A stretch of DNA of 64,000 nt from Candidatus Krumholzibacteriia bacterium. GTDB taxonomy: Bacteria; Krumholzibacteriota; Krumholzibacteriia; JAJRXK01. Within the stretch, counting starts at the first letter, position 1. Every line of letters begins with the position of its first letter. The notes under the pieces are model-generated. The model was not told the origin of the DNA, did not search any database, and worked only from the letters and a program-made list of their open reading frames with translations. Below, in pieces: positions 11,371-55,082 of the stretch. The stretch covers positions 64,147-128,146 of the forward strand of contig JAOZPE010000003.1 in assembly GCA_029932915.1 (NCBI GenBank), in the 5' to 3' direction. Position numbers and translations under genes: made by a program.

Positions 11371-12627
11371 TCAACGCGGCGACTCCTCGTCGACGATCTC
11401 GTCGATCCACTCGGCCGGGACCCTCTCGAAGAGCGGGGCTCCGGAGACGGGATCGCGCTCGCTGCGGAAGCTCCGGCCCGGGGGCTGGCGCTTGAAGGAA
11501 TCGGCCAGGACCACCACCGGGACCCCTCTCTCGTGGGCGGCGCGAGCCAGCGCCGCCGTGCCCACCTTGTTGACCACCGAGCCATCGGGCAGGACCGTGT
11601 CGGCGCCGACCATCACGATCCCCGCCTCGCCCACACGCTCCCGCAGGCGCGGATCGTCCAGGAGGAGGACCTCGTAGCCATCGTCCCGCAGATCGCGGGC
11701 CAGGGCCTCGCCCTCGCCTCCCGGCAGGCTGCGGGCCACCATCACCCGCCGGGGAACGTCCACGTGGCGGCGGGCCCGGCGCAGGGCCTCCCGCACGCTC
11801 TCGGAGAACGAGAAGGTGGCCACCACCGGCCGGCCCACCAGCCGGAGCGCACCGGTCTCGGCCAGTTCGACGGCGGCGCGGTCCAGATGCTCCTCGATCG
11901 CGTCGAGGCGGGTGAGGAGCTCGGCGCGCGCGGCCGCCTCCAGGGGCGCCGCCCACGGCTCCGCCTCCTCGGGGGGGCCGACGGCCGGGCCCATGCCCAC
12001 GAGCCACCGGCGCAGCACCGAGCCCAACGGGGCCATCGCCTCCCGGGTGTCGGCCAGGGTCTGGGCCGCGCGCAACACCTCGCTCCAGAGTCGGAACGAC
12101 GGAAGGAGGCTCCGCAACTCCCCGACCATCCCACGGGCGATGAGGTGCGCTCCGTGCACGGTGTCGCTGCGAAGGCGCGCCGCCGCCGCCTCCACGAGAG
12201 CGGAGGGCGGAGGCTGGAGTTCGGAGAGGGCCTCGGCCAGATGCGGCACGGTCTCGAAGCGGGCCAGCTCGTCGGGATGCACCCACTCGTGGCCGGCGTT
12301 CTCCGCGTTCAGCCGCGGCGGAGCGTCGTCGTGCAACAGGAACAGGAAGGAATGGACCCGCCAGCGCACCGCCCGCTTCGTCTCGACCACTTCGAAGGCC
12401 CGGGCCCGGGCCACCGGATTCGAACCGGACAGATCGTATCCGGTCTCCTCGGCCACTTCCCTCCGGGCCGTGTCCACCGGCCGCTCGCCGGCCTCCACCG
12501 ATCCGCTCACCACCGACCAGCGGCCCGGATAGGAGCGCATCGAGACGTGGCGATGCAACAGGAGGATGCGGCCGTGACGCCACAGGAAGGCCGAGGCGGT
12601 ATCCCGGGTCCGTGAGACTTCTTCCAT
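11371..12627 (-). CDS. Fusion protein: N-terminal NUDIX hydrolase domain plus C-terminal eIF-2B/MtnA-family sugar-phosphate isomerase domain
   Basis: N-terminal Nudix box GSVEAGERPVDTARREVAEETGY fits GX5EX7REUXEEXGU. The C-terminal ~180 aa carry the eIF-2B family signature (MVGADTVLPDGSVVNKVGTAALA, cf. the MtnA GADxxxxNGxxxNKIGT motif). Single uninterrupted 418-aa ORF. Confidence 0.75.
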   Translation of the reverse strand: MEEVSRTRDTASAFLWRHGRILLLHRHVSMRSYPGRWSVVSGSVEAGERPVDTARREVAEETGYDLSGSNPVARARAFEVVETKRAVRWRVHSFLFLLHDDAPPRLNAENAGHEWVHPDELARFETVPHLAEALSELQPPPSALVEAAAARLRSDTVHGAHLIARGMVGELRSLLPSFRLWSEVLRAAQTLADTREAMAPLGSVLRRWLVGMGPAVGPPEEAEPWAAPLEAAARAELLTRLDAIEEHLDRAAVELAETGALRLVGRPVVATFSFSESVREALRRARRHVDVPRRVMVARSLPGGEGEALARDLRDDGYEVLLLDDPRLRERVGEAGIVMVGADTVLPDGSVVNKVGTAALARAAHERGVPVVVLADSFKRQPPGRSFRSERDPVSGAPLFERVPAEWIDEIVDEESPR

Positions 12628-31062: not shown

Positions 31063-32637
31063 ATGGAAACCATTGCGGTCGACTACCGTATCCGATCCGC
31101 CGAGCTGAACGAGGCGCGGCGGCTCGCCCGGGCCATCGCCGTCGAGCAGACCGTCGAGGTCCCCGAGGAGCTCATCACACCCTCGATCGAGCGCGAGGTG
31201 GTGGGAACGATCGAGGAGCTGCGGCCGGACGGACCGGCGGCCCACATCGCCCGGATCCGCTATCCCGCCCATCTGGTCGCGGGCGAGTTGCCGCGGCTGT
31301 TGAACCTCATCCACGGCAACACCTCGATGCAGCCGGGCATCCGGATCGTCGATCTGCGTCTGCCCACCTCCGTGCTCGAGGCCTTCGCCGGCCCGCGCTT
31401 CGGCATCGAGGGGGTCCGCCGGCTGCTGGGCGTGTACGGGCGGCCCCTGCTGGTCTCCGCCCTGAAACCCAATGGCTCGCCGGTGGACGAGCTGGCCGCC
31501 ATCGCCCGGGCTTTCGCCCTCGGCGGCGGGGACATCATCAAGGACGACCAGAACCTGTGGGATCGCGATCTCCGTGCGTGGCGCGAGAGGGTGAGCCGCT
31601 GCCAGGAGGCGGTGGAGGAGGGGAACGCGCGCAGTGGGCGCCGTTGCCTCTACTTCCCCTACCTCAGCGGAAACATCGAAGAAGCGGACGAACGCCTGGA
31701 GATCCTCCACCGCCTCGGGGTCAGGGGCGTCCTCGTCGCGCCCTTCCTGCTGGGCCTGGAGGCCACCCGCTCGCTCGCCCGCCGGCACCCCCTGGTCATG
31801 ATGGCCCATCCCTCGTGGTCGGGTTCCCACTACCTCTCCAGGGACGAGGGCATGGAGGCCGATCTGGTGCTGGGCACCCTGATGCGCCTGATCGGGATGG
31901 ACATCTCCATCTTCGTCAACGCCGGCGGACGCTTCTCCTTCGATCGTGAGTCCTGCCGGGCCATCGCCCGTCGTCTGCGGGAACCCCTGGGAGAGCTGCG
32001 GCCCGCCCTGCCCTCACCGGCCGGCGGGATGCGGCTGGACAATCTCGACCAGATGGCTGCCGACTACGGCAGCGATGCCTGCCTGCTCATCGGCGGCGCA
32101 CTGCTCTCCCATTCGGACGATCTGGCCGCAAGCACGCGTCATTTCCTGGCGGCCATCGGTGAGCACTTCAGCGAGAGGCTCGAGGAACCCGACGATTCCC
32201 CCATGGAGCGTTCCCATGGGTGGCCAACGCCGGCCGTCACCCACCGCCTGTTGCACGAACTCGTGCACCGGGGCGACTTCAGCTGGGAGGGACGCCGTTT
32301 CGTCGCCTACAAGACCGACGAGAGCCTTCCCTTCGCCGGAGTGCGCCGGCTCGAGTTGATCGGCCCGGCGGGGGAGCACACCGCCTTCGAACTGCGCTAT
32401 TTCGAGCTCGAGCCGGGAGGCTTCACCAGCCTGGAGAAACACCACCACACCCACGTCCTCATCGGAGTCCGTGGGCGTGGGGTGCTCGTCCGGGGCGAGG
32501 AGAGAAGCGAGCTGCTGCCGCTGGACATCGCCTACGTCGACCGCCTCATCGTGCACCAGTTGCGCAACGAGAATGACGAGCCCTTCGGGGTCTTCTGTAT
32601 CGTCGACCGCGAGCGCGACCGGCCCCTGCCACCCTGA
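31063..32637 (+). CDS. Fusion protein: RuBisCO-like protein (form IV-like RuBisCO large-subunit homolog) plus C-terminal cupin domain
   Basis: 524 aa. The N-terminal ~410 aa carry RuBisCO large-chain landmarks: GRPLLVSALKPNGS (cf. GRPLLGCTIKPKLG, K175 kept), GGGDIIKDDQNL (cf. GGLDFTKDDEN; K201/D203 kept, E204 replaced by Q), PSPAGGM (cf. PIISGGM) and IGGALLSH glycine loop. The C-terminal ~110 aa form a cupin barrel with metal ligands (EKHHHTHVLIGVRGRGVLV and PLDIAYVDRLIVHQLRN, i.e. H-x-H...H(x3)N). Confidence 0.8.
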   Translation: METIAVDYRIRSAELNEARRLARAIAVEQTVEVPEELITPSIEREVVGTIEELRPDGPAAHIARIRYPAHLVAGELPRLLNLIHGNTSMQPGIRIVDLRLPTSVLEAFAGPRFGIEGVRRLLGVYGRPLLVSALKPNGSPVDELAAIARAFALGGGDIIKDDQNLWDRDLRAWRERVSRCQEAVEEGNARSGRRCLYFPYLSGNIEEADERLEILHRLGVRGVLVAPFLLGLEATRSLARRHPLVMMAHPSWSGSHYLSRDEGMEADLVLGTLMRLIGMDISIFVNAGGRFSFDRESCRAIARRLREPLGELRPALPSPAGGMRLDNLDQMAADYGSDACLLIGGALLSHSDDLAASTRHFLAAIGEHFSERLEEPDDSPMERSHGWPTPAVTHRLLHELVHRGDFSWEGRRFVAYKTDESLPFAGVRRLELIGPAGEHTAFELRYFELEPGGFTSLEKHHHTHVLIGVRGRGVLVRGEERSELLPLDIAYVDRLIVHQLRNENDEPFGVFCIVDRERDRPLPP

Positions 32638-33929: not shown

Positions 33930-34486
33930 GGTTGCTCCAAGCGCCGCCGGACGCTCTTGCGTGCGCGGTGCAAGGTGATCTTCACCGAGGACAGGGAGAG
34001 GCCGGTCACTTCGGCGATCTCCTCGTAGGAGAGATGGTGCAGTTCCCTCAGCATGATGACCGAGCGATGGGGTTCGTCCAGATCACCCATGGCCTGCACC
34101 ACTTCATGGACCTCCACTTCCCTCTCGATATGCCGGGCTCCGGCTCCCCCATCGCTGAGATCGACCGAACCCTCGATCGCCGTGCCTTCCTCCCCCGGCG
34201 CCGGAGCATGAAGGCCGTGGGTCGTCGTGAGCGGGTCGTCGCGGTGCCGCGAGCGCACCCGGCGGCGGCGCAGACGATCGAGACAGGCGTTCCGGCAGAC
34301 CCGCATCAGCCACACCCCGCAGGAGGCCGCCTCCACCCGCTCTCCCTGCCTCCACAACTTCAGGAAGACGTCCTGGACCACGTCCTCGGCCTCTTCACGG
34401 CTGCGAAGAAGATGGACCGCCAGCCCGTAGACCGCGTCCTTGTGCTCGTACAGGAGCCGGGTGAATGCGGGTCGATCCATCTTCAT
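33911..34486 (-). CDS. RNA polymerase ECF-type sigma-70 factor (sigma-24 family)
   Basis: 191 aa; region 2 (DAVYGLAVHLLRSREEAEDVVQDVFLKLW) and region 4 HTH (LSYEEIAEVTGLSLSSVKITLHRARKSVRRRL). Confidence 0.8.
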   Translation of the reverse strand: MKMDRPAFTRLLYEHKDAVYGLAVHLLRSREEAEDVVQDVFLKLWRQGERVEAASCGVWLMRVCRNACLDRLRRRRVRSRHRDDPLTTTHGLHAPAPGEEGTAIEGSVDLSDGGAGARHIEREVEVHEVVQAMGDLDEPHRSVIMLRELHHLSYEEIAEVTGLSLSSVKITLHRARKSVRRRLEQPWEARA

Positions 34487-34668
34487 CGCTCATTCAAGGG
34501 AAGGACGCGCGGCGAGGCCGGAAAGTTACCGCCCCCAACATCTCTTTCCTTCCCCCATCCTCTCTGTTAGAATGCCTGCATACCAGAAACGATCTCAGCG
34601 CGCGCGCATCTCCATCCCACTTCCGATGCCCGCTGCTCCGCTCGCGCCACCAGATACGGGGTCGATCC

Positions 34669-35649
34669 ATGAAGCCTCTTCCCCAAAGAGCTTTCGAGTT
34701 CCTCGACCTTGCGCCGGGTGTGGGCGACCTCCTCGAGGAAGTGCAGGAAGGTCTGCGATCGACCCCGAAGTACCTTCCTTCCAAGTACTTCTACGATAAA
34801 CGGGGAAGCGAACTCTTCGAGCGCATCACCGAGTTGCCCGGCTATTATCTGACCCGCAGCGAGCTGGACATCCTCCAGGACTTCGCCCCCGCCATCACCA
34901 AGGCCATGGGCCGGCAATGCTATCTGGTCGAGCTGGGAAGCGGCAACTGCATGAAGACGCGCTTCCTCCTCGATACCCTCGAGGATCCGGTGGCCTACGC
35001 CCCGGTGGACATCTGCGCAAGCACCCTGCGGAACGCGGCCGCCACCCTGCACCGGGAGTACCCCCGGCTGGAACTGCTGCCGGTGTGCGCCGACTTCACC
35101 CGCCCCTTCCCCCTTCCCAAGCCCCATGTGAGCCCCCGGCGCACGGTCATCTACTTCGGCGGTTCCACCGTGGGCAACTTCACCCCGCGGCAGACCGTCC
35201 CCCTGCTGGAGATCATGGCCAGCGCCCTGGGCCAGGGCGGAGTGCTGCTGGTGGGAATCGACCTGAAGAAGGATCCCCGCATCCTGCACCGGGCCTACAA
35301 TGACGCCCGCGGCATCACCGCCGCCTTCAACCTGAATCTCCTGGTACGGATCAACCGCGAACTCGATGCCGACTTCCAACTCGACTGCTTCCGGCACTAC
35401 GCCTTCTACAACCCCACCAAGAGCCGGGTGGAGATGCACCTGGTCTCCACCCGGGACCAGAGCGTGACCATCGACGGCGAGAGCTTCTCCTTCCACCGCG
35501 GGGAGAGCATCCTCACCGAGTACTCCTGCAAGTACCGTATGGACGACTTCGTCCAGCTCGCCCAGGACGCCGGCTTCCAACTCCGTGAACGCTGGACCGA
35601 CCGCCGCGGCCATTTCGGGCTGCTCTATCTCGAGGTGGCCGAGAACTGA
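34669..35649 (+). CDS. EgtD-like SAM-dependent methyltransferase (histidine N-alpha-methyltransferase family)
   Basis: Start reassigned to MKPLPQRAFEFLDL at 34669. Hallmark N-terminal block LPSKYFYDKRGSELFERITELPGYYLTRSELDIL and SAM-binding LVELGSGNCMKT; 326 aa. Confidence 0.75.
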   Translation: MKPLPQRAFEFLDLAPGVGDLLEEVQEGLRSTPKYLPSKYFYDKRGSELFERITELPGYYLTRSELDILQDFAPAITKAMGRQCYLVELGSGNCMKTRFLLDTLEDPVAYAPVDICASTLRNAAATLHREYPRLELLPVCADFTRPFPLPKPHVSPRRTVIYFGGSTVGNFTPRQTVPLLEIMASALGQGGVLLVGIDLKKDPRILHRAYNDARGITAAFNLNLLVRINRELDADFQLDCFRHYAFYNPTKSRVEMHLVSTRDQSVTIDGESFSFHRGESILTEYSCKYRMDDFVQLAQDAGFQLRERWTDRRGHFGLLYLEVAEN

Positions 35650-47527: not shown

Positions 47528-47884
47528 ATGGTGAAACCGTACCGCCCGTTCCCTCTCATCGTTCTCATCGTCTCGTGTGTCGCGGCCCTGAGCGCCTGCC
47601 AACGACAGGCGGTCCCGGAGAGCTCCCCCCCAGCCCAGGAGCAGAGAATGGCTCCCACCCGACCCATCGACGAGGTCCTCGCCGACCACGACGAGGAGAT
47701 CCTGGCCATCCCCGGCGTCACCGTGATCTACGTGGGCGTCGACGAGCAGGGGAAGCCCTGCCTGAAAGTGGGAGTGGAGACGGCCACTCCCGAAATCGAA
47801 GAGCGCATTCCCCGGATGATCGAAGGGTGGCCGGTGGTGGTGGAGGAAACGGGCAGGATCGAACCCATGGGCGAAGGCGGCTAG
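47528..47884 (+). CDS. Small hypothetical lipoprotein
   Basis: 118 aa; lipobox LSACQRQ; RBS gggaggttcc. Confidence 0.5.
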   Translation: MVKPYRPFPLIVLIVSCVAALSACQRQAVPESSPPAQEQRMAPTRPIDEVLADHDEEILAIPGVTVIYVGVDEQGKPCLKVGVETATPEIEERIPRMIEGWPVVVEETGRIEPMGEGG

Positions 47885-49446
47885 CGCAGCGCCGGATCGT
47901 CTCCGAAGGTCTCCCGGAGCTGGACCCGTGCCTGGCGGTTCACCGCATCGGACCACAGCTCGATGCGGTTGCGATCGTCGGTGAGCACTTCGGCCCGGGC
48001 CAGGGCGGCCGGATCGAAACGGTTGTCCCAGCCGTGGTTCATCTGGATGACCCGCCAGTGTTCGTAGTCGTCGTAGAGAACGTCGATGGGACGGGGCAGG
48101 CGCTCTTCATCGAAGTGGAGGGCGGGATCGACACCCGCCACCAGGACCACGTTCCCCAGCACGTTGCGTGGTTCCTGGGTGGGAAGCGCCCACACCACCG
48201 GGAAGTCCTGCCGCAGGGTCTTGCCGATCGACGCCACCACCGGGTCGTACCACTGCCGGGCCTCCACGTTCATCGCCAGGACACCGTTCGGGAGCAGGTG
48301 TTCTCTCACCAGGGCGAAGAACTCCTCGGTCACCAGGTGAAAGGGGATGGACGAGGAGCCGAAGGCATCGACGAGGATGAGATCCCAGCGTTTGGGAGTC
48401 TCCAGGAGGAAGCGGCGGGCGTCACCGAGGTGGACCCGCGCCTGGGCCGGCTTGAGGTCGAAGAAACGGCGGGCCACATCGACCACCATCGGATCGATCT
48501 CCACCGCATCGACCTCCCATCCGGCCAGATGGTAGTCCACCGCCACGACCCCTCCCCCGAGGCCGAGCAAGAGCATTCGGCCTGGCTCATCGAAAAGGTA
48601 TTCGAGCGACTCGAAGACCGGCACGTATCGATGATGGCTCTCCCCCTGCCCGAAGCCTTCGACGGTGTGCACCCCGCCGTCGAGCAGGAGGTAGCGGCCG
48701 TCCTCGTGTTGCAGCACCCTCACTTCCGAATAAGGAGAATCACACTTGAAGAGAAGGCTGCGAGGCGGTACCTCGGCCCGGACGACTCCATAGCCGGCGG
48801 CGGCGGCCATCAGGAAGAAGAGCAACGCGGCCGACGACGCTACACGGCGGTTCTCAGAGCCTGTCCGCCGCACACCCCAGAAGGCCAGCGCCGAGCCGAC
48901 AAGCAGGACAACCCCCACGAAGAGGGTGAGACGCAGGACACCCAGCGAGGGAAGCAACCAGAAACCAGTGGCCAATGCAGCAACCACGCTTGCGATGGTC
49001 GATGCGGCGTAGAGATTGCCCGCATCGCGCCCCACGTGATCGACCGAGGTGGCCTTCAGGCGCAGAGCATAGGGGGTGATCATGCCCAGCAAGGTCAGCG
49101 GAACGGCGAAGAGCACGACAGCAGAGACGAGGACCGCGGACCGCAGACCCATTCCCCCGATGAGCTGCAACAGGGGATGCTTGATCCAGGGGATGATCAG
49201 CACCCACAGGCCGGCAGCAGCGAAGAGAGCTCCCAGCCGTGACAGAAGCGGCCTGCGATCCGCCCAACGCCCACCCAGGGCGTACCCGGCGGCCAGCGAA
49301 GCCAGGGTGACGGTGATCAGAGCCGACCACAGGTAGAGCGAAACCCCGAAGAAAGGGCCGAGCAGGCGGGTTCCGAGGATCTCCAAGGCCAGGACCGCCG
49401 CGCCGGAGATCGAGACCAGGACGTAGAGAAGGATCAGAAGGTTCAT
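47881..49446 (-). CDS. Spermidine-synthase-like aminopropyltransferase fused to an N-terminal multi-TM membrane domain
   Basis: 521 aa; about 7 N-terminal TM helices; C-terminal SpeE-like domain (RMLLLGLGGGVVAV...VDAVEIDP...DLILVDAF). Confidence 0.75.
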   Translation of the reverse strand: MNLLILLYVLVSISGAAVLALEILGTRLLGPFFGVSLYLWSALITVTLASLAAGYALGGRWADRRPLLSRLGALFAAAGLWVLIIPWIKHPLLQLIGGMGLRSAVLVSAVVLFAVPLTLLGMITPYALRLKATSVDHVGRDAGNLYAASTIASVVAALATGFWLLPSLGVLRLTLFVGVVLLVGSALAFWGVRRTGSENRRVASSAALLFFLMAAAAGYGVVRAEVPPRSLLFKCDSPYSEVRVLQHEDGRYLLLDGGVHTVEGFGQGESHHRYVPVFESLEYLFDEPGRMLLLGLGGGVVAVDYHLAGWEVDAVEIDPMVVDVARRFFDLKPAQARVHLGDARRFLLETPKRWDLILVDAFGSSSIPFHLVTEEFFALVREHLLPNGVLAMNVEARQWYDPVVASIGKTLRQDFPVVWALPTQEPRNVLGNVVLVAGVDPALHFDEERLPRPIDVLYDDYEHWRVIQMNHGWDNRFDPAALARAEVLTDDRNRIELWSDAVNRQARVQLRETFGDDPALR

Positions 49447-53471: not shown

Positions 53472-54896
53472 TCAACAGTCGGGTGAGGCGCTGGCCATCG
53501 ATTCCCCGTTCATCAGTTCCGCCAGACTTCGGTCGCGGACCCGCGCCTGCAACTCGTTGTAGAGTTCATTCACCACCACCCATGCCTCATGCGAGCCGGC
53601 GGCTCCGCGCAGAGGCATCAGCTTCTCCCCGGCCGACAATACATCCGCCGCGCTGATCTCATCGGCCGGACGCGCCAGGGCATAACCCATCCGCCTCCCC
53701 TCGTGCACCTCGTGCACGAGGTTCGCGCGCTGCAGGACCTTCACCAGACGCATGACCGCCGAAGGGGGCAGACGCAACGATTGCGTCAAGACGGCGACGG
53801 TCGCGAGCTTGCCTTCGCGGAAACACTCCGCGATCCGGGTGGCCAGGGGCAGGACCAGGGTCCGGTCGATGACGATCAGGTCGCCCTCGTAGAAACGGCG
53901 CCACTCGAAGCGGCCTTCCCGCATCGCCTGCAACGCATACGCCAATTCGAGGCCGAAGAGCACGACGATCCATGTGATCCACAGCCACAACAGGAAGAGC
54001 GGGAGAAGACCCAGGGCCCCATACAGGGTGGAGATGGCGGCACGCTTCACGTACAGCGCGAAGCCCTGTGCGCCGACCCACCACAGGACGGCTGCCACCG
54101 CCGCGCCGATGGCCACCGGCCGCGCCCGCACCTCGGTGTTGGGCAGGAACTTGTAGACGAAGGCCAGCACCATCCATACCGAGAGCACCGGGGTGATCAC
54201 CGCGAGAACGGAGAGAATGGTGGAACCGAAACTCAGCGCCCCGATGTGCTGGAGGATCTTGCTCTGTGTGACCTGCCCGATGAACAACACCAATGGACCC
54301 AGGGTGATGACCGTATAGTACATGGGAAGGCGCAGATAGGGTGGTCGACCGGGTCCGGCCTTGTAGATGTGATTGAAGGAGCTCTCCACCGTCGACAGCA
54401 ACCCGGTGGCCGCCCATACGAAGATGAGGATCCCCACCAACCCCACACCGCGGAAATCGACCGTCTCCAGATGGGTCAGCAACCTCTCCACCTGGATGGC
54501 CAGGGTCTTGCGCACGGCCTCGAAGTTCTCCGAGCGCCGCAGACTCTCTCCCTGGAGGTTCCGGTGAGGCGAGGGAATACCGTGGATGATCTCCTCCTGT
54601 TGGAGGGGTTGCAGCATCCAGTTCACGATTCCCTCGCGGTATTCGGCCATGTCCTCCGGACCGACGAAGGCGTGCATCACCACCAAACTCAGCACCAGGG
54701 TCGGCATGAGGGAGAAGATGGTGTGGTAGGTCAGGGCCGCCGCCATCGTGGAGGCGCGGTCTCGCCTCAATTCCGAAGCGCAGTGTCGGGACAGATCGAA
54801 CCACCAACGGAGAGTCCGCTCACGACCCCGCAGATCCTGTTCGGGTTTGCGCATCCACCGCCGCACACTGGCGATCGTTCGCTTGACCTTCCACAT
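53472..54896 (-). CDS. YihY/BrkB-family inner-membrane protein with C-terminal cytoplasmic extension
   Basis: Start reassigned to MWKVKRTIASVRRW at 54896. YihY core (ALTYHTIFSLMPTLVL..., six TM) plus ~150-aa C-terminal soluble domain. Confidence 0.75.
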   Translation of the reverse strand: MWKVKRTIASVRRWMRKPEQDLRGRERTLRWWFDLSRHCASELRRDRASTMAAALTYHTIFSLMPTLVLSLVVMHAFVGPEDMAEYREGIVNWMLQPLQQEEIIHGIPSPHRNLQGESLRRSENFEAVRKTLAIQVERLLTHLETVDFRGVGLVGILIFVWAATGLLSTVESSFNHIYKAGPGRPPYLRLPMYYTVITLGPLVLFIGQVTQSKILQHIGALSFGSTILSVLAVITPVLSVWMVLAFVYKFLPNTEVRARPVAIGAAVAAVLWWVGAQGFALYVKRAAISTLYGALGLLPLFLLWLWITWIVVLFGLELAYALQAMREGRFEWRRFYEGDLIVIDRTLVLPLATRIAECFREGKLATVAVLTQSLRLPPSAVMRLVKVLQRANLVHEVHEGRRMGYALARPADEISAADVLSAGEKLMPLRGAAGSHEAWVVVNELYNELQARVRDRSLAELMNGESMASASPDC

Positions 54897-55082
54897 GGCC
54901 TCTCCACCATTCGGATTTCCGATCGGGCCCGAGACTAGACCACCCCCGCTCAAAGGCCAAGGATTGAGTGCAAGACCCCTCTTTCCGGTGGCGGAGAAGC
55001 CCTTGTCTCCTCATAGTGTGAGGGAGTCCCTTCCCCGATTCACTCGACTCGGTTTGGATCCCCATGGTAGAGGAGCATCCCG

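Follow-up and report, generated by a model that had tools for sequence, protein, structure and literature searches.

Which reactions does a protein catalyse in which a RuBisCO-like protein (RLP) is joined to a cupin on one chain? This question is raised by a single gene in 64,000 nucleotides of DNA from a Candidatus Krumholzibacteriia bacterium (GenBank assembly GCA_029932915.1, contig JAOZPE010000003.1, positions 64,147 to 128,146 of the forward strand), hereafter the window, in which positions are counted from the first letter. An earlier note, made from the letters alone, had described one 524-amino acid (aa) open reading frame (ORF) consisting of an RLP and a C-terminal cupin, and had compared it with two consecutive enzymes of Rhodospirillum rubrum. 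The present analysis supported this comparison and sharpened it to an RLP of the DeepYkr type and a cupin of the Rru_A2000 type (PDB matches, motifs, and fold). We infer, with a probability of approximately 70%, that the protein functions as a bifunctional enzyme of the methylthioadenosine (MTA)-isoprenoid shunt, where the RLP would act as 5-methylthioribulose-1-phosphate (MTRu-1-P) 1,3-isomerase and the cupin as 1-methylthioxylulose-5-phosphate methylsulfurylase. The gene and its parts are as follows:

31063..32637, + strand: complete gene of the RLP, linker, and cupin fusion (ORF listing, coding signature in one frame, and full-length homologs)
31063..32178, + strand: RLP domain, aa 1-372, DeepYkr type, predicted MTRu-1-P 1,3-isomerase (PDB phmmer, Foldseek, PF00016, and motifs)
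32179..32268, + strand: inter-domain linker, aa 373-402 (confidence of the AlphaFold2 model and motif census)
32269..32634, + strand: cupin domain, aa 403-524, Rru_A2000 family, predicted 1-methylthioxylulose-5-phosphate methylsulfurylase (PDB phmmer, identities, and Cupin_2)

The ORF starts with ATG and contains 524 codons and a stop codon. Its two-part composition was borne out by Pfam profiles, which placed RuBisCO_large (PF00016) at aa 114-358 (E 1.8e-18; 67 bits against a gathering cutoff of 30) and Cupin_2 at aa 446-513 (E 9e-8; 32 bits against a gathering cutoff of 27). The RLP, linker, and cupin share one reading frame, stop codons interrupt both other frames, and the GC contents at codon positions 1/2/3 were 0.72/0.47/0.88 (RLP part), 0.77/0.43/0.80 (linker), and 0.73/0.41/0.88 (cupin part). 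Four contigs, assembled independently (ENA, JGI, and Logan), encode the identical 524-aa protein. The ORF is a real gene, and neither a chance ORF nor the product of a frameshift or of assembly. The AlphaFold2 (AF2) model, built from 120 homologs, had a mean predicted local distance difference test score (pLDDT) of 93.7 and a predicted template modelling score (pTM) of 0.84, and both domains and their relative placement were confident; pLDDT was <50 only at aa 383-385 and 387-393, and residues 383-393 were predicted to be disordered. When this model was compared with solved structures by Foldseek, the template modelling score (TM) on the query was 0.65 or lower for every chain and, therefore, no solved chain spans both the RLP and cupin.

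The N-terminal part belongs to the RuBisCO superfamily, as indicated by PF00016 and by Foldseek TM values (on target) of 0.77-0.94 to RLPs and RuBisCOs. In a phmmer search of the PDB, aa 6-368 best matched 3qfw (E 9.5e-73), titled as a RuBisCO-like protein of Rhodopseudomonas palustris, and the next chains were MtnW-type RLPs (2.4e-46 or weaker); 3qfw was also the best Foldseek match of the AF2 model (TM 0.94 on target; root-mean-square deviation of 1.7 A). The RLP1 protein of R. palustris (RPA2169) has been shown to function as MTRu-1-P 1,3-isomerase in vivo and in vitro (PMC5893883), and the same activity was experimentally shown for Rru_A1998 from R. rubrum, a member of the same DeepYkr clade (PMC5893883, PMC4958253). 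The RLP domain of the window is ~38% identical to the characterised isomerase. Four sites in this domain were compared:

31318..31320, + strand: Asn86, where the MtnW-type 4nas has Lys; invariant in the fusion family and also Asn in 3qfw (alignments)
31465..31467, + strand: Lys135 in RPLLVSALKPNG, equivalent to K175, with Asn137 at the K177 position; Lys135 invariant in 120 fusions
31540..31551, + strand: K160-D161-D162-Q163 (KDDQ), equivalents of K201, D202, D203, and E204; K160, D161, and D162 invariant
31924..31935, + strand: G288-G289-R290-F291 (GGRF); G289, R290, and F291 invariant; common to 3qfw, YGSV in 4nas

A three-way alignment revealed that the motifs GN86, KDD(Q/H), NxGGRF, and PAGG were common to the window RLP and 3qfw, but not 4nas. 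The position of the MtnW lysine reads G-N86 in the window, G-N in 3qfw, and G-K in 4nas (in wider context, HGN86 against FGK in 4nas); the loop-6 region reads NAGGRF, NYGGRF, and SMYGSV, and the phosphate-site motif PAGG, PAGG, and PSAG, respectively. The metal-site motif of the window protein is GGGDIIK160DDQ163N, and members of the fusion family have either Q or H at position 163 (KDDH in 3qfw, KDDE in 4nas). We take Asn86 to occupy the position of RuBisCO N123, which would be the site of the catalytic lysine in MtnW, and RPLLVSALK135PNG, the motif around the K175 equivalent, to correspond to RPLLGCTIKPK of RuBisCO. Arg290 presumably stands at the position of K334 (loop 6), as estimated by a gapless count along the motif. 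On this assumed numbering, the RuBisCO catalytic residues K175, K201, D203, and H294 are kept (K135, K160, D162, and H249), and K177, E204, R295, H327, K334, and S379 are replaced (N137, Q163, P250, I283, R290, and A320). The active-site alignment thus agreed with the earlier note, which had read equivalents of K175 and K201 and KDDQ in place of KDDE. In addition to these motifs, the window RLP shares with 3qfw a short length (~370 aa), ALKP(N/Q)G, LIGG, and the same clade in a neighbour-joining (NJ) tree; on the other hand, it has Q and not H after KDD, is attached to a cupin by a linker of ~30 aa where 3qfw is a separate polypeptide, and comes from an uncultured lineage close to Gemmatimonadota/Eiseniibacteriota and not from an alphaproteobacterium.

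A bona fide RuBisCO of forms I-III was rejected, because the NCBIfam models were all far below their cutoffs (type III, 133 bits against 497; forms I and II, 128 bits against 438 and 28 bits against 489) and the catalytic set was incomplete; the earlier expectation that ribulose-1,5-bisphosphate is unlikely to be carboxylated was, therefore, upheld. The top NCBIfam models by E-value were those of MtnW (2e-62 and 1.3e-45), while the scores on these equivalogs, 211 bits against 409 and 156 bits against 514, were also insufficient. Since these cutoffs were missed and catalytic residues were replaced, the RLP domain is not a carboxylase, nor is it an MtnW enolase. On sequence and modelled fold, it is a DeepYkr-type RLP: 3qfw is the closest relative by both measures, the clade motifs are present, the two proteins share a clade in the NJ tree (which carries no support values), and the association of DeepYkr RLPs with an Rru_A2000-type cupin is found here as an in-frame fusion.

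The C-terminal 138 residues matched three cupins in the PDB by phmmer, 3ibm (1.3e-29), 3jzv (2.5e-21), and 3kgz (1e-17), and the next cupin (1.5e-5) was 12 orders of magnitude weaker. 3jzv is titled "uncharacterized protein Rru_A2000"; this protein is the R. rubrum methylsulfurylase acting on 1-methylthio-D-xylulose-5-phosphate (PMC4958253, PMC4334135), for which glutathione is the thiol in vivo and a glutathione-SCH3 adduct the product (PMC4334135, PMC4958253). The cupin domain of the window is 48%, 38%, and 34% identical to 3ibm (from Halorhodospira), 3jzv, and 3kgz, respectively, over the whole domain. In total, 29 columns show one and the same residue in all four sequences, and many lie far outside the motifs generic to cupins: W408, G410, Y416, K417, R445-Y-F-E448, L457-E458, H460/H462/H464, H498-Q499, C512, and R518-D519-x-P521 (in motif form, W..G, YK, RYFE, LE(K/R)HxHxH, HQ, G..C.V, and RD.P). 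The following sites are conserved:

32440..32454, + strand: H460-H-H462-T-H464, cupin motif 1 with its His cluster, presumably the metal ligands; H460, H462, and H464 invariant in 120 fusions and the three solved cupins
32554..32568, + strand: H498-Q499-L-R-N502, cupin motif 2; H498 and Q499 invariant in fusions and standalone cupins
32596..32598, + strand: Cys512 in a G(F/V)(F/L)C(I/V)V strand; invariant in 120 fusions, 3ibm, 3jzv, and 3kgz

The H-x-H...H(x3)N ligand pattern described previously was, therefore, confirmed in these two motifs, and near-invariance of N502 is limited to the fusions. The homology is well above that to generic cupins and the family-invariant residues are kept, which places the domain in the Rru_A2000 family. 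The cupin part had no match to an NCBIfam family, and the Pfam scan gave no signal of acireductone dioxygenase (ARD), only Cupin_2 and a sub-threshold match to mannose-6-phosphate isomerase. The solved relatives are free proteins of ~130-165 aa, whereas the cupin of the window is a C-terminal domain.

Based on these relationships, the following reaction sequence may be proposed. MTA from reactions dependent on S-adenosylmethionine (SAM) would be converted to MTRu-1-P by MtnP (or MtnN/MtnK) and MtnA encoded elsewhere in the genome. In the RLP domain, a divalent metal would be held by carbamylated Lys160 and Asp162, and enolisation chemistry would shift the carbonyl (1,3-isomerisation) to give 1-methylthioxylulose-5-phosphate. 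In the cupin, a metal would be held by His460/462/464/498, and a thiol would attack the methylthio sulfur, yielding DXP (1-deoxy-D-xylulose-5-phosphate) and a methyl-disulfide adduct; the latter would release methanethiol, which may be recaptured into methionine. DXP is a precursor of isoprenoids, thiamine, and pyridoxal.

Genes for the two enzymes, consecutive in the pathway, are neighbouring in R. rubrum (Rru_A1998/Rru_A2000) and adjacent in R. palustris (RPA2169/RPA2170), and separate homologous genes in similar organisation are found in Meiothermus, Nitrococcus, and Halorhodospira (PMC5893883, PMC4958253). The fusion most likely originated when adjacent rlp and cupin genes lost the stop codon separating them; it would guarantee 1:1 expression and probably a local hand-over of the intermediate. 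Because the domain order is fixed, the linker is short, and the pTM of the model is 0.84, substrate channelling between the two sites is plausible. A precedent for consecutive steps of methionine salvage in one polypeptide is MtnBD from Tetrahymena (PMC3698126); however, this is a eukaryotic fusion of a class II aldolase-type dehydratase with an ARD dioxygenase, has unrelated folds, and acts in the oxygen-dependent canonical pathway.

The same fusion was widely found elsewhere, as the earlier note had suggested looking for. When 5.8 billion proteins were searched, more than 120 protein clusters were obtained (48-74% identity), all full-length RLP-cupin fusions, and both Pfam domains are on record for 119 of the 120 clusters listed; their public names are generic, such as "cupin domain-containing protein" and "ribulose-bisphosphate carboxylase large chain". 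Among GTDB species-representative genomes, a scan with a single sequence gave no match in the reference genomes, and an alignment-based scan succeeded, detecting at least 580 loci with a relative; the best 80, which were analysed, all contained full-length fusions. Carriers were found in Planctomycetota (Schlesneria, including a metagenome-assembled genome (MAG) labelled S. paludicola DSM 18645, Planctomicrobium, Scalindua, and Phycisphaerae), Gammaproteobacteria (Lysobacterales, Rhodanobacteraceae, and Thiotrichales), Acidobacteriota, Nitrospirota, KSB1, Hydrogenedentes, Sumerlaeaceae, FCPU426, and one Salibacteraceae MAG. The order from RLP to cupin was the same in all 149 fusions examined. 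In 120 sequences, K135, K160, D161, D162, H249, R290, H460, H462, H464, H498, Q499, and C512 were invariant and, judging from this conservation, both halves of the fusion are under constraint.

Both enzymes and their pathway are already known. No description of their covalent fusion was found in the literature searched, with an earlier remark in the primary enzyme papers being possible, and users of genome-neighbourhood tools have probably seen it already. The genome paper of Scalindua profunda refers to an RLP akin to those of Planctomyces and Magnetobacterium, with the cupin unmentioned; lineages related to this organism carry the fusion in our survey. A survey of the methylerythritol phosphate (MEP) pathway in 2023 scored the two shunt enzymes as separate orthologs. 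Of the previous remark that the architecture was undescribed, the absence from the papers searched stands, but the architecture is not rare: public data contain it in abundance, from many phyla.

The relationship between fused and unfused RLPs was assessed in an exhaustive search that used the RLP domain as its only query and yielded 295 representatives (clusters at 50% identity) at E <1e-30; the best 150 comprised 28 RLP-cupin fusions and ~119 plain RLPs of 365-400 aa. In an NJ tree rooted on 4nas and lacking support values, fused and unfused RLPs were interleaved (~23 parsimony changes) with 3qfw nested inside, and some entries counted as standalone may be truncated gene calls. This interleaving suggests repeated fusion or fission of the RLP and cupin. 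Other architectures were also found among relatives of the RLP domain (P0127, P0263, P0206, P0248, P0196, P0231, and P0242). Two of them belong to the same RLP clade: P0127, in which an N-terminal domain resembling inositol monophosphatase (WVVDPIDGT) precedes the RLP, and P0263, in which the RLP is fused to a C-terminal region similar to transketolase/DXS. Several long relatives with low-complexity repeats (MFASSPxxLKKMR) look eukaryotic.

The linker has a median length of 31 residues in the 149 fusions. In approximately half of them (72/149, plus a few S-x-C-D variants), it contains the motif S-(A/S)-C-E-x-P; xCE was found in the linker of these 72, and 56 of the 149, including the window protein, have no linker cysteine. 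The motif falls in an otherwise variable linker, exactly at the segment disordered in the AF2 model, and is a feature by which the fused family differs from Rru_A2000 and its free relatives. In two long, repeat-rich RLP-cupin proteins (P0196 and P0231), GSACEW(K/R/T)P was observed at the extreme C-terminus. The linker cysteine may supply the methylsulfurylase step with a tethered thiol. Since the window protein reads ERSHGWP at the motif position (32209-32241; aa 383-393), without a cysteine, this idea is not directly applicable to it. A more far-reaching version, in which the fusions are self-contained enzymes converting MTRu-1-P to DXP and methanethiol, the linker cysteine replaces glutathione in approximately half of the family, and the window variant depends on an external thiol, is speculative and rather doubtful.

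The assignment to the shunt also gains from the genes near related fusions. In 8 of the 80 loci, a genuine MtnA gene was located no more than 3.5 kb from the fusion and on its strand, and linked MtnA proteins scored 434 and 407 bits on TIGR00512 (cutoff, 279). In a gammaproteobacterial MAG (L013, 551-3315), the start of mtnA overlaps the stop codon of the fusion by 4 bp; mtnA lies within ~3.5 kb upstream of the fusion in seven loci of Acidobacteriota (L064, L067, L069, L076, L077, L083, and L086), and the intervening genes, where identified, were a FitA/PIN toxin-antitoxin pair and tsaD. The product of MtnA is the proposed substrate, MTRu-1-P, and MtnA is the only metabolic neighbour that recurs in more than one phylum.

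Several observations weigh against the shunt reading. The identity to characterised enzymes is only ~38% per domain, and the RLP superfamily is known to change function at this level of identity. Of the 80 related loci, 72 had no methionine-salvage neighbour, and the 145 immediate flanking genes were heterogeneous in a Pfam census; no conserved operon surrounds the fusion, with no neighbour family present in more than 7 of the 80 loci when ORFs were clustered. MtnP, MtnA, and O-acetylhomoserine sulfhydrylase were all absent from the 64-kb window, and no Rfam match to a SAM or methionine riboswitch was found in the window or 19 related loci. Furthermore, the closest standalone RLP (P0122; L087, 846-3870), which shares 49% identity with the RLP of the window, is encoded downstream of a short-chain dehydrogenase (SDR) gene, at a distance of 19 bp; its neighbours are this SDR and an Ldh_2-family dehydrogenase, with no cupin gene beside it (P0123, also among the nearest standalone RLPs, lies on a short contig). 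The P0122 locus hints at other functions inside the clade, and may represent a different pathway.

These points lend some room to a different use of the same pair of folds, in which the substrate would be a ribulose-1-phosphate with some other substituent at position 5, or an unrelated keto-sugar phosphate; for example, 5-deoxyribulose-1-phosphate derived from 5'-deoxyadenosine, a by-product of radical-SAM enzymes, with the cupin then isomerising, epimerising, or cleaving differently. Functional plasticity of the RLP superfamily, the alternation of Q and H at the E204 position within the family, the interleaving of fused and standalone RLPs, the dehydrogenase neighbours of P0122, the extensions of P0127 and P0263, and the missing mtn neighbours at most loci are all compatible with such a shift, as is the modest identity to the characterised enzymes. 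However, the cupin is specifically related to Rru_A2000 and keeps every family-invariant residue; a plain 5-deoxy compound needs no C-S cleaving partner, which would leave the conserved fusion unexplained; and the sole metabolic neighbour recurring in more than one phylum is the enzyme that makes the substrate proposed here. A different substrate is, therefore, considered unlikely.

The pair of Bacillus methionine salvage, offered as an alternative in the earlier note, was not borne out. In that case, the RLP would be the 2,3-diketo-5-methylthiopentyl-1-phosphate enolase MtnW and the cupin an MtnD-like ARD. MtnW models rank first by E-value in NCBIfam, MtnD is a cupin, and the MtnW/YkrW enolases (2oek, 2zvi, and 4nas) resemble the RLP domain in superfamily, fold (TM 0.83-0.87 on target), and connection to methionine salvage. 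However, they catalyse another reaction with other pathway partners, and the window protein scored far under both equivalog cutoffs, has Asn86 for the lysine of 4nas, KDDQ for KDDE, and GGRF for YGSV, and its cupin matches only generic Cupin_2 and the Rru_A2000 family and no ARD-type family; moreover, the MtnW and MtnD steps are not consecutive, the phosphatase MtnX acting between them. Based on the NCBIfam cutoffs and residue checks, a combination of MtnW and MtnD was rejected as very improbable. The chance that adjacent rlp and cupin genes were merged by a sequencing frameshift, lost stop codon, or chimeric assembly, a doubt raised previously and conceivable in principle because these genes adjoin in R. 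palustris so that one error could join them, is negligible given the same protein in four independent assemblies, the codon-position GC pattern unbroken across the junction with stops in the other frames, the recurrence of the architecture, its linker length conserved, in more than 120 clusters and in the genomes of 80 species, and the confident AF2 model.

Within the window, the fusion gene stands alone. Two unannotated proteins, probably of the envelope, are encoded upstream; a convergent gene for a DUF4252 protein lies downstream, followed by a pair consisting of an unannotated protein and an extracytoplasmic function (ECF) sigma factor and, beyond the latter, an EgtD-like methyltransferase and an M3 peptidase. 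A relative with 74% identity (L004) keeps this neighbour order. A scan for promoters and terminators around the fusion gene gave nothing above the shuffled expectation. The remaining genes of the window have housekeeping functions (mfd, surA, ftsEX, thyA, folA, ppx, a phosphate transporter, moaA, and sdhAB). The nearest named relatives of the Mfd protein were from Gemmatimonadales (50% identity), Ca. Eiseniibacteriota (47%), and Latescibacterota (44%), and relatives without a name shared 64-84% identity with it; these matches point to an uncultured lineage in the vicinity of the named phyla. Other features considered were:

34465-35649, + strand: EgtD-like SAM-dependent histidine-specific methyltransferase (PF10017, E 1e-107), 2 kb downstream of the fusion
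11371-12627, - strand: NUDIX-IF-2B protein of 418 aa with an N-terminal NUDIX hydrolase (domain scan)
47881-49446, - strand: spermidine/spermine-synthase-domain protein of 521 aa (E 7e-9)
53472-54953, - strand: single ORF with a BrkB/YihY-family membrane domain and a C-terminal Rrf2-type regulator domain

Since EgtD makes the ergothioneine precursor, a link to a low-molecular-weight thiol is conceivable, although speculative. The earlier note had regarded the NUDIX-IF-2B gene, 19 kb away, as an MtnA-family isomerase fused to NUDIX that provided a context of sugar-phosphate salvage. The two domains were confirmed, and this architecture is unusual; on the other hand, the protein is not MtnA and gives no pathway context. 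Its best NCBIfam model was ribose-1,5-bisphosphate isomerase (79 bits; cutoff, 314), the MtnA models gave 28-38 bits against cutoffs of 186-279, and tblastn of a genuine MtnA against the window gave no match at 1e-5; accordingly, the gene was rejected as MtnA. No family corresponding to MtnP, MtnK, MtnB, or MtnX was found among the scanned genes of the window, as had been noted before. The spermidine/spermine-synthase family produces MTA, the proposed input of the pathway, and this gene, 15 kb from the fusion, is a weak link.

Mechanistically, the fusion is what would be expected and represents no new kind of biochemistry; two enzymes already known as a pair occur here in fused form. To date, the MTA-isoprenoid shunt has been shown to operate in two alphaproteobacteria, its presence in a few other bacteria being inferred, and the fusion of its two signature enzymes provides independent genomic evidence for their pairing. 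As a single gene, the fusion may be used as a marker of the shunt in genomes and metagenomes. It is also a convenient single-polypeptide system for the hand-over of an intermediate between active sites: the RLP gives a 3:1 mixture of products, and the cupin reportedly acts on one of them. The fusion could, furthermore, help to settle which thiol is used in the methylsulfurylase step. Its spread through Planctomycetota (including the anammox bacterium Scalindua), Acidobacteriota, Nitrospirota, and others suggests that the shunt may be far commoner than reported, with consequences for microbial methanethiol production and for a supply of DXP independent of Dxs. If the fusions were indeed self-contained enzymes, an oxygen-independent and Dxs-independent route to DXP, together with sulfur salvage, would be common in many uncultured phyla.

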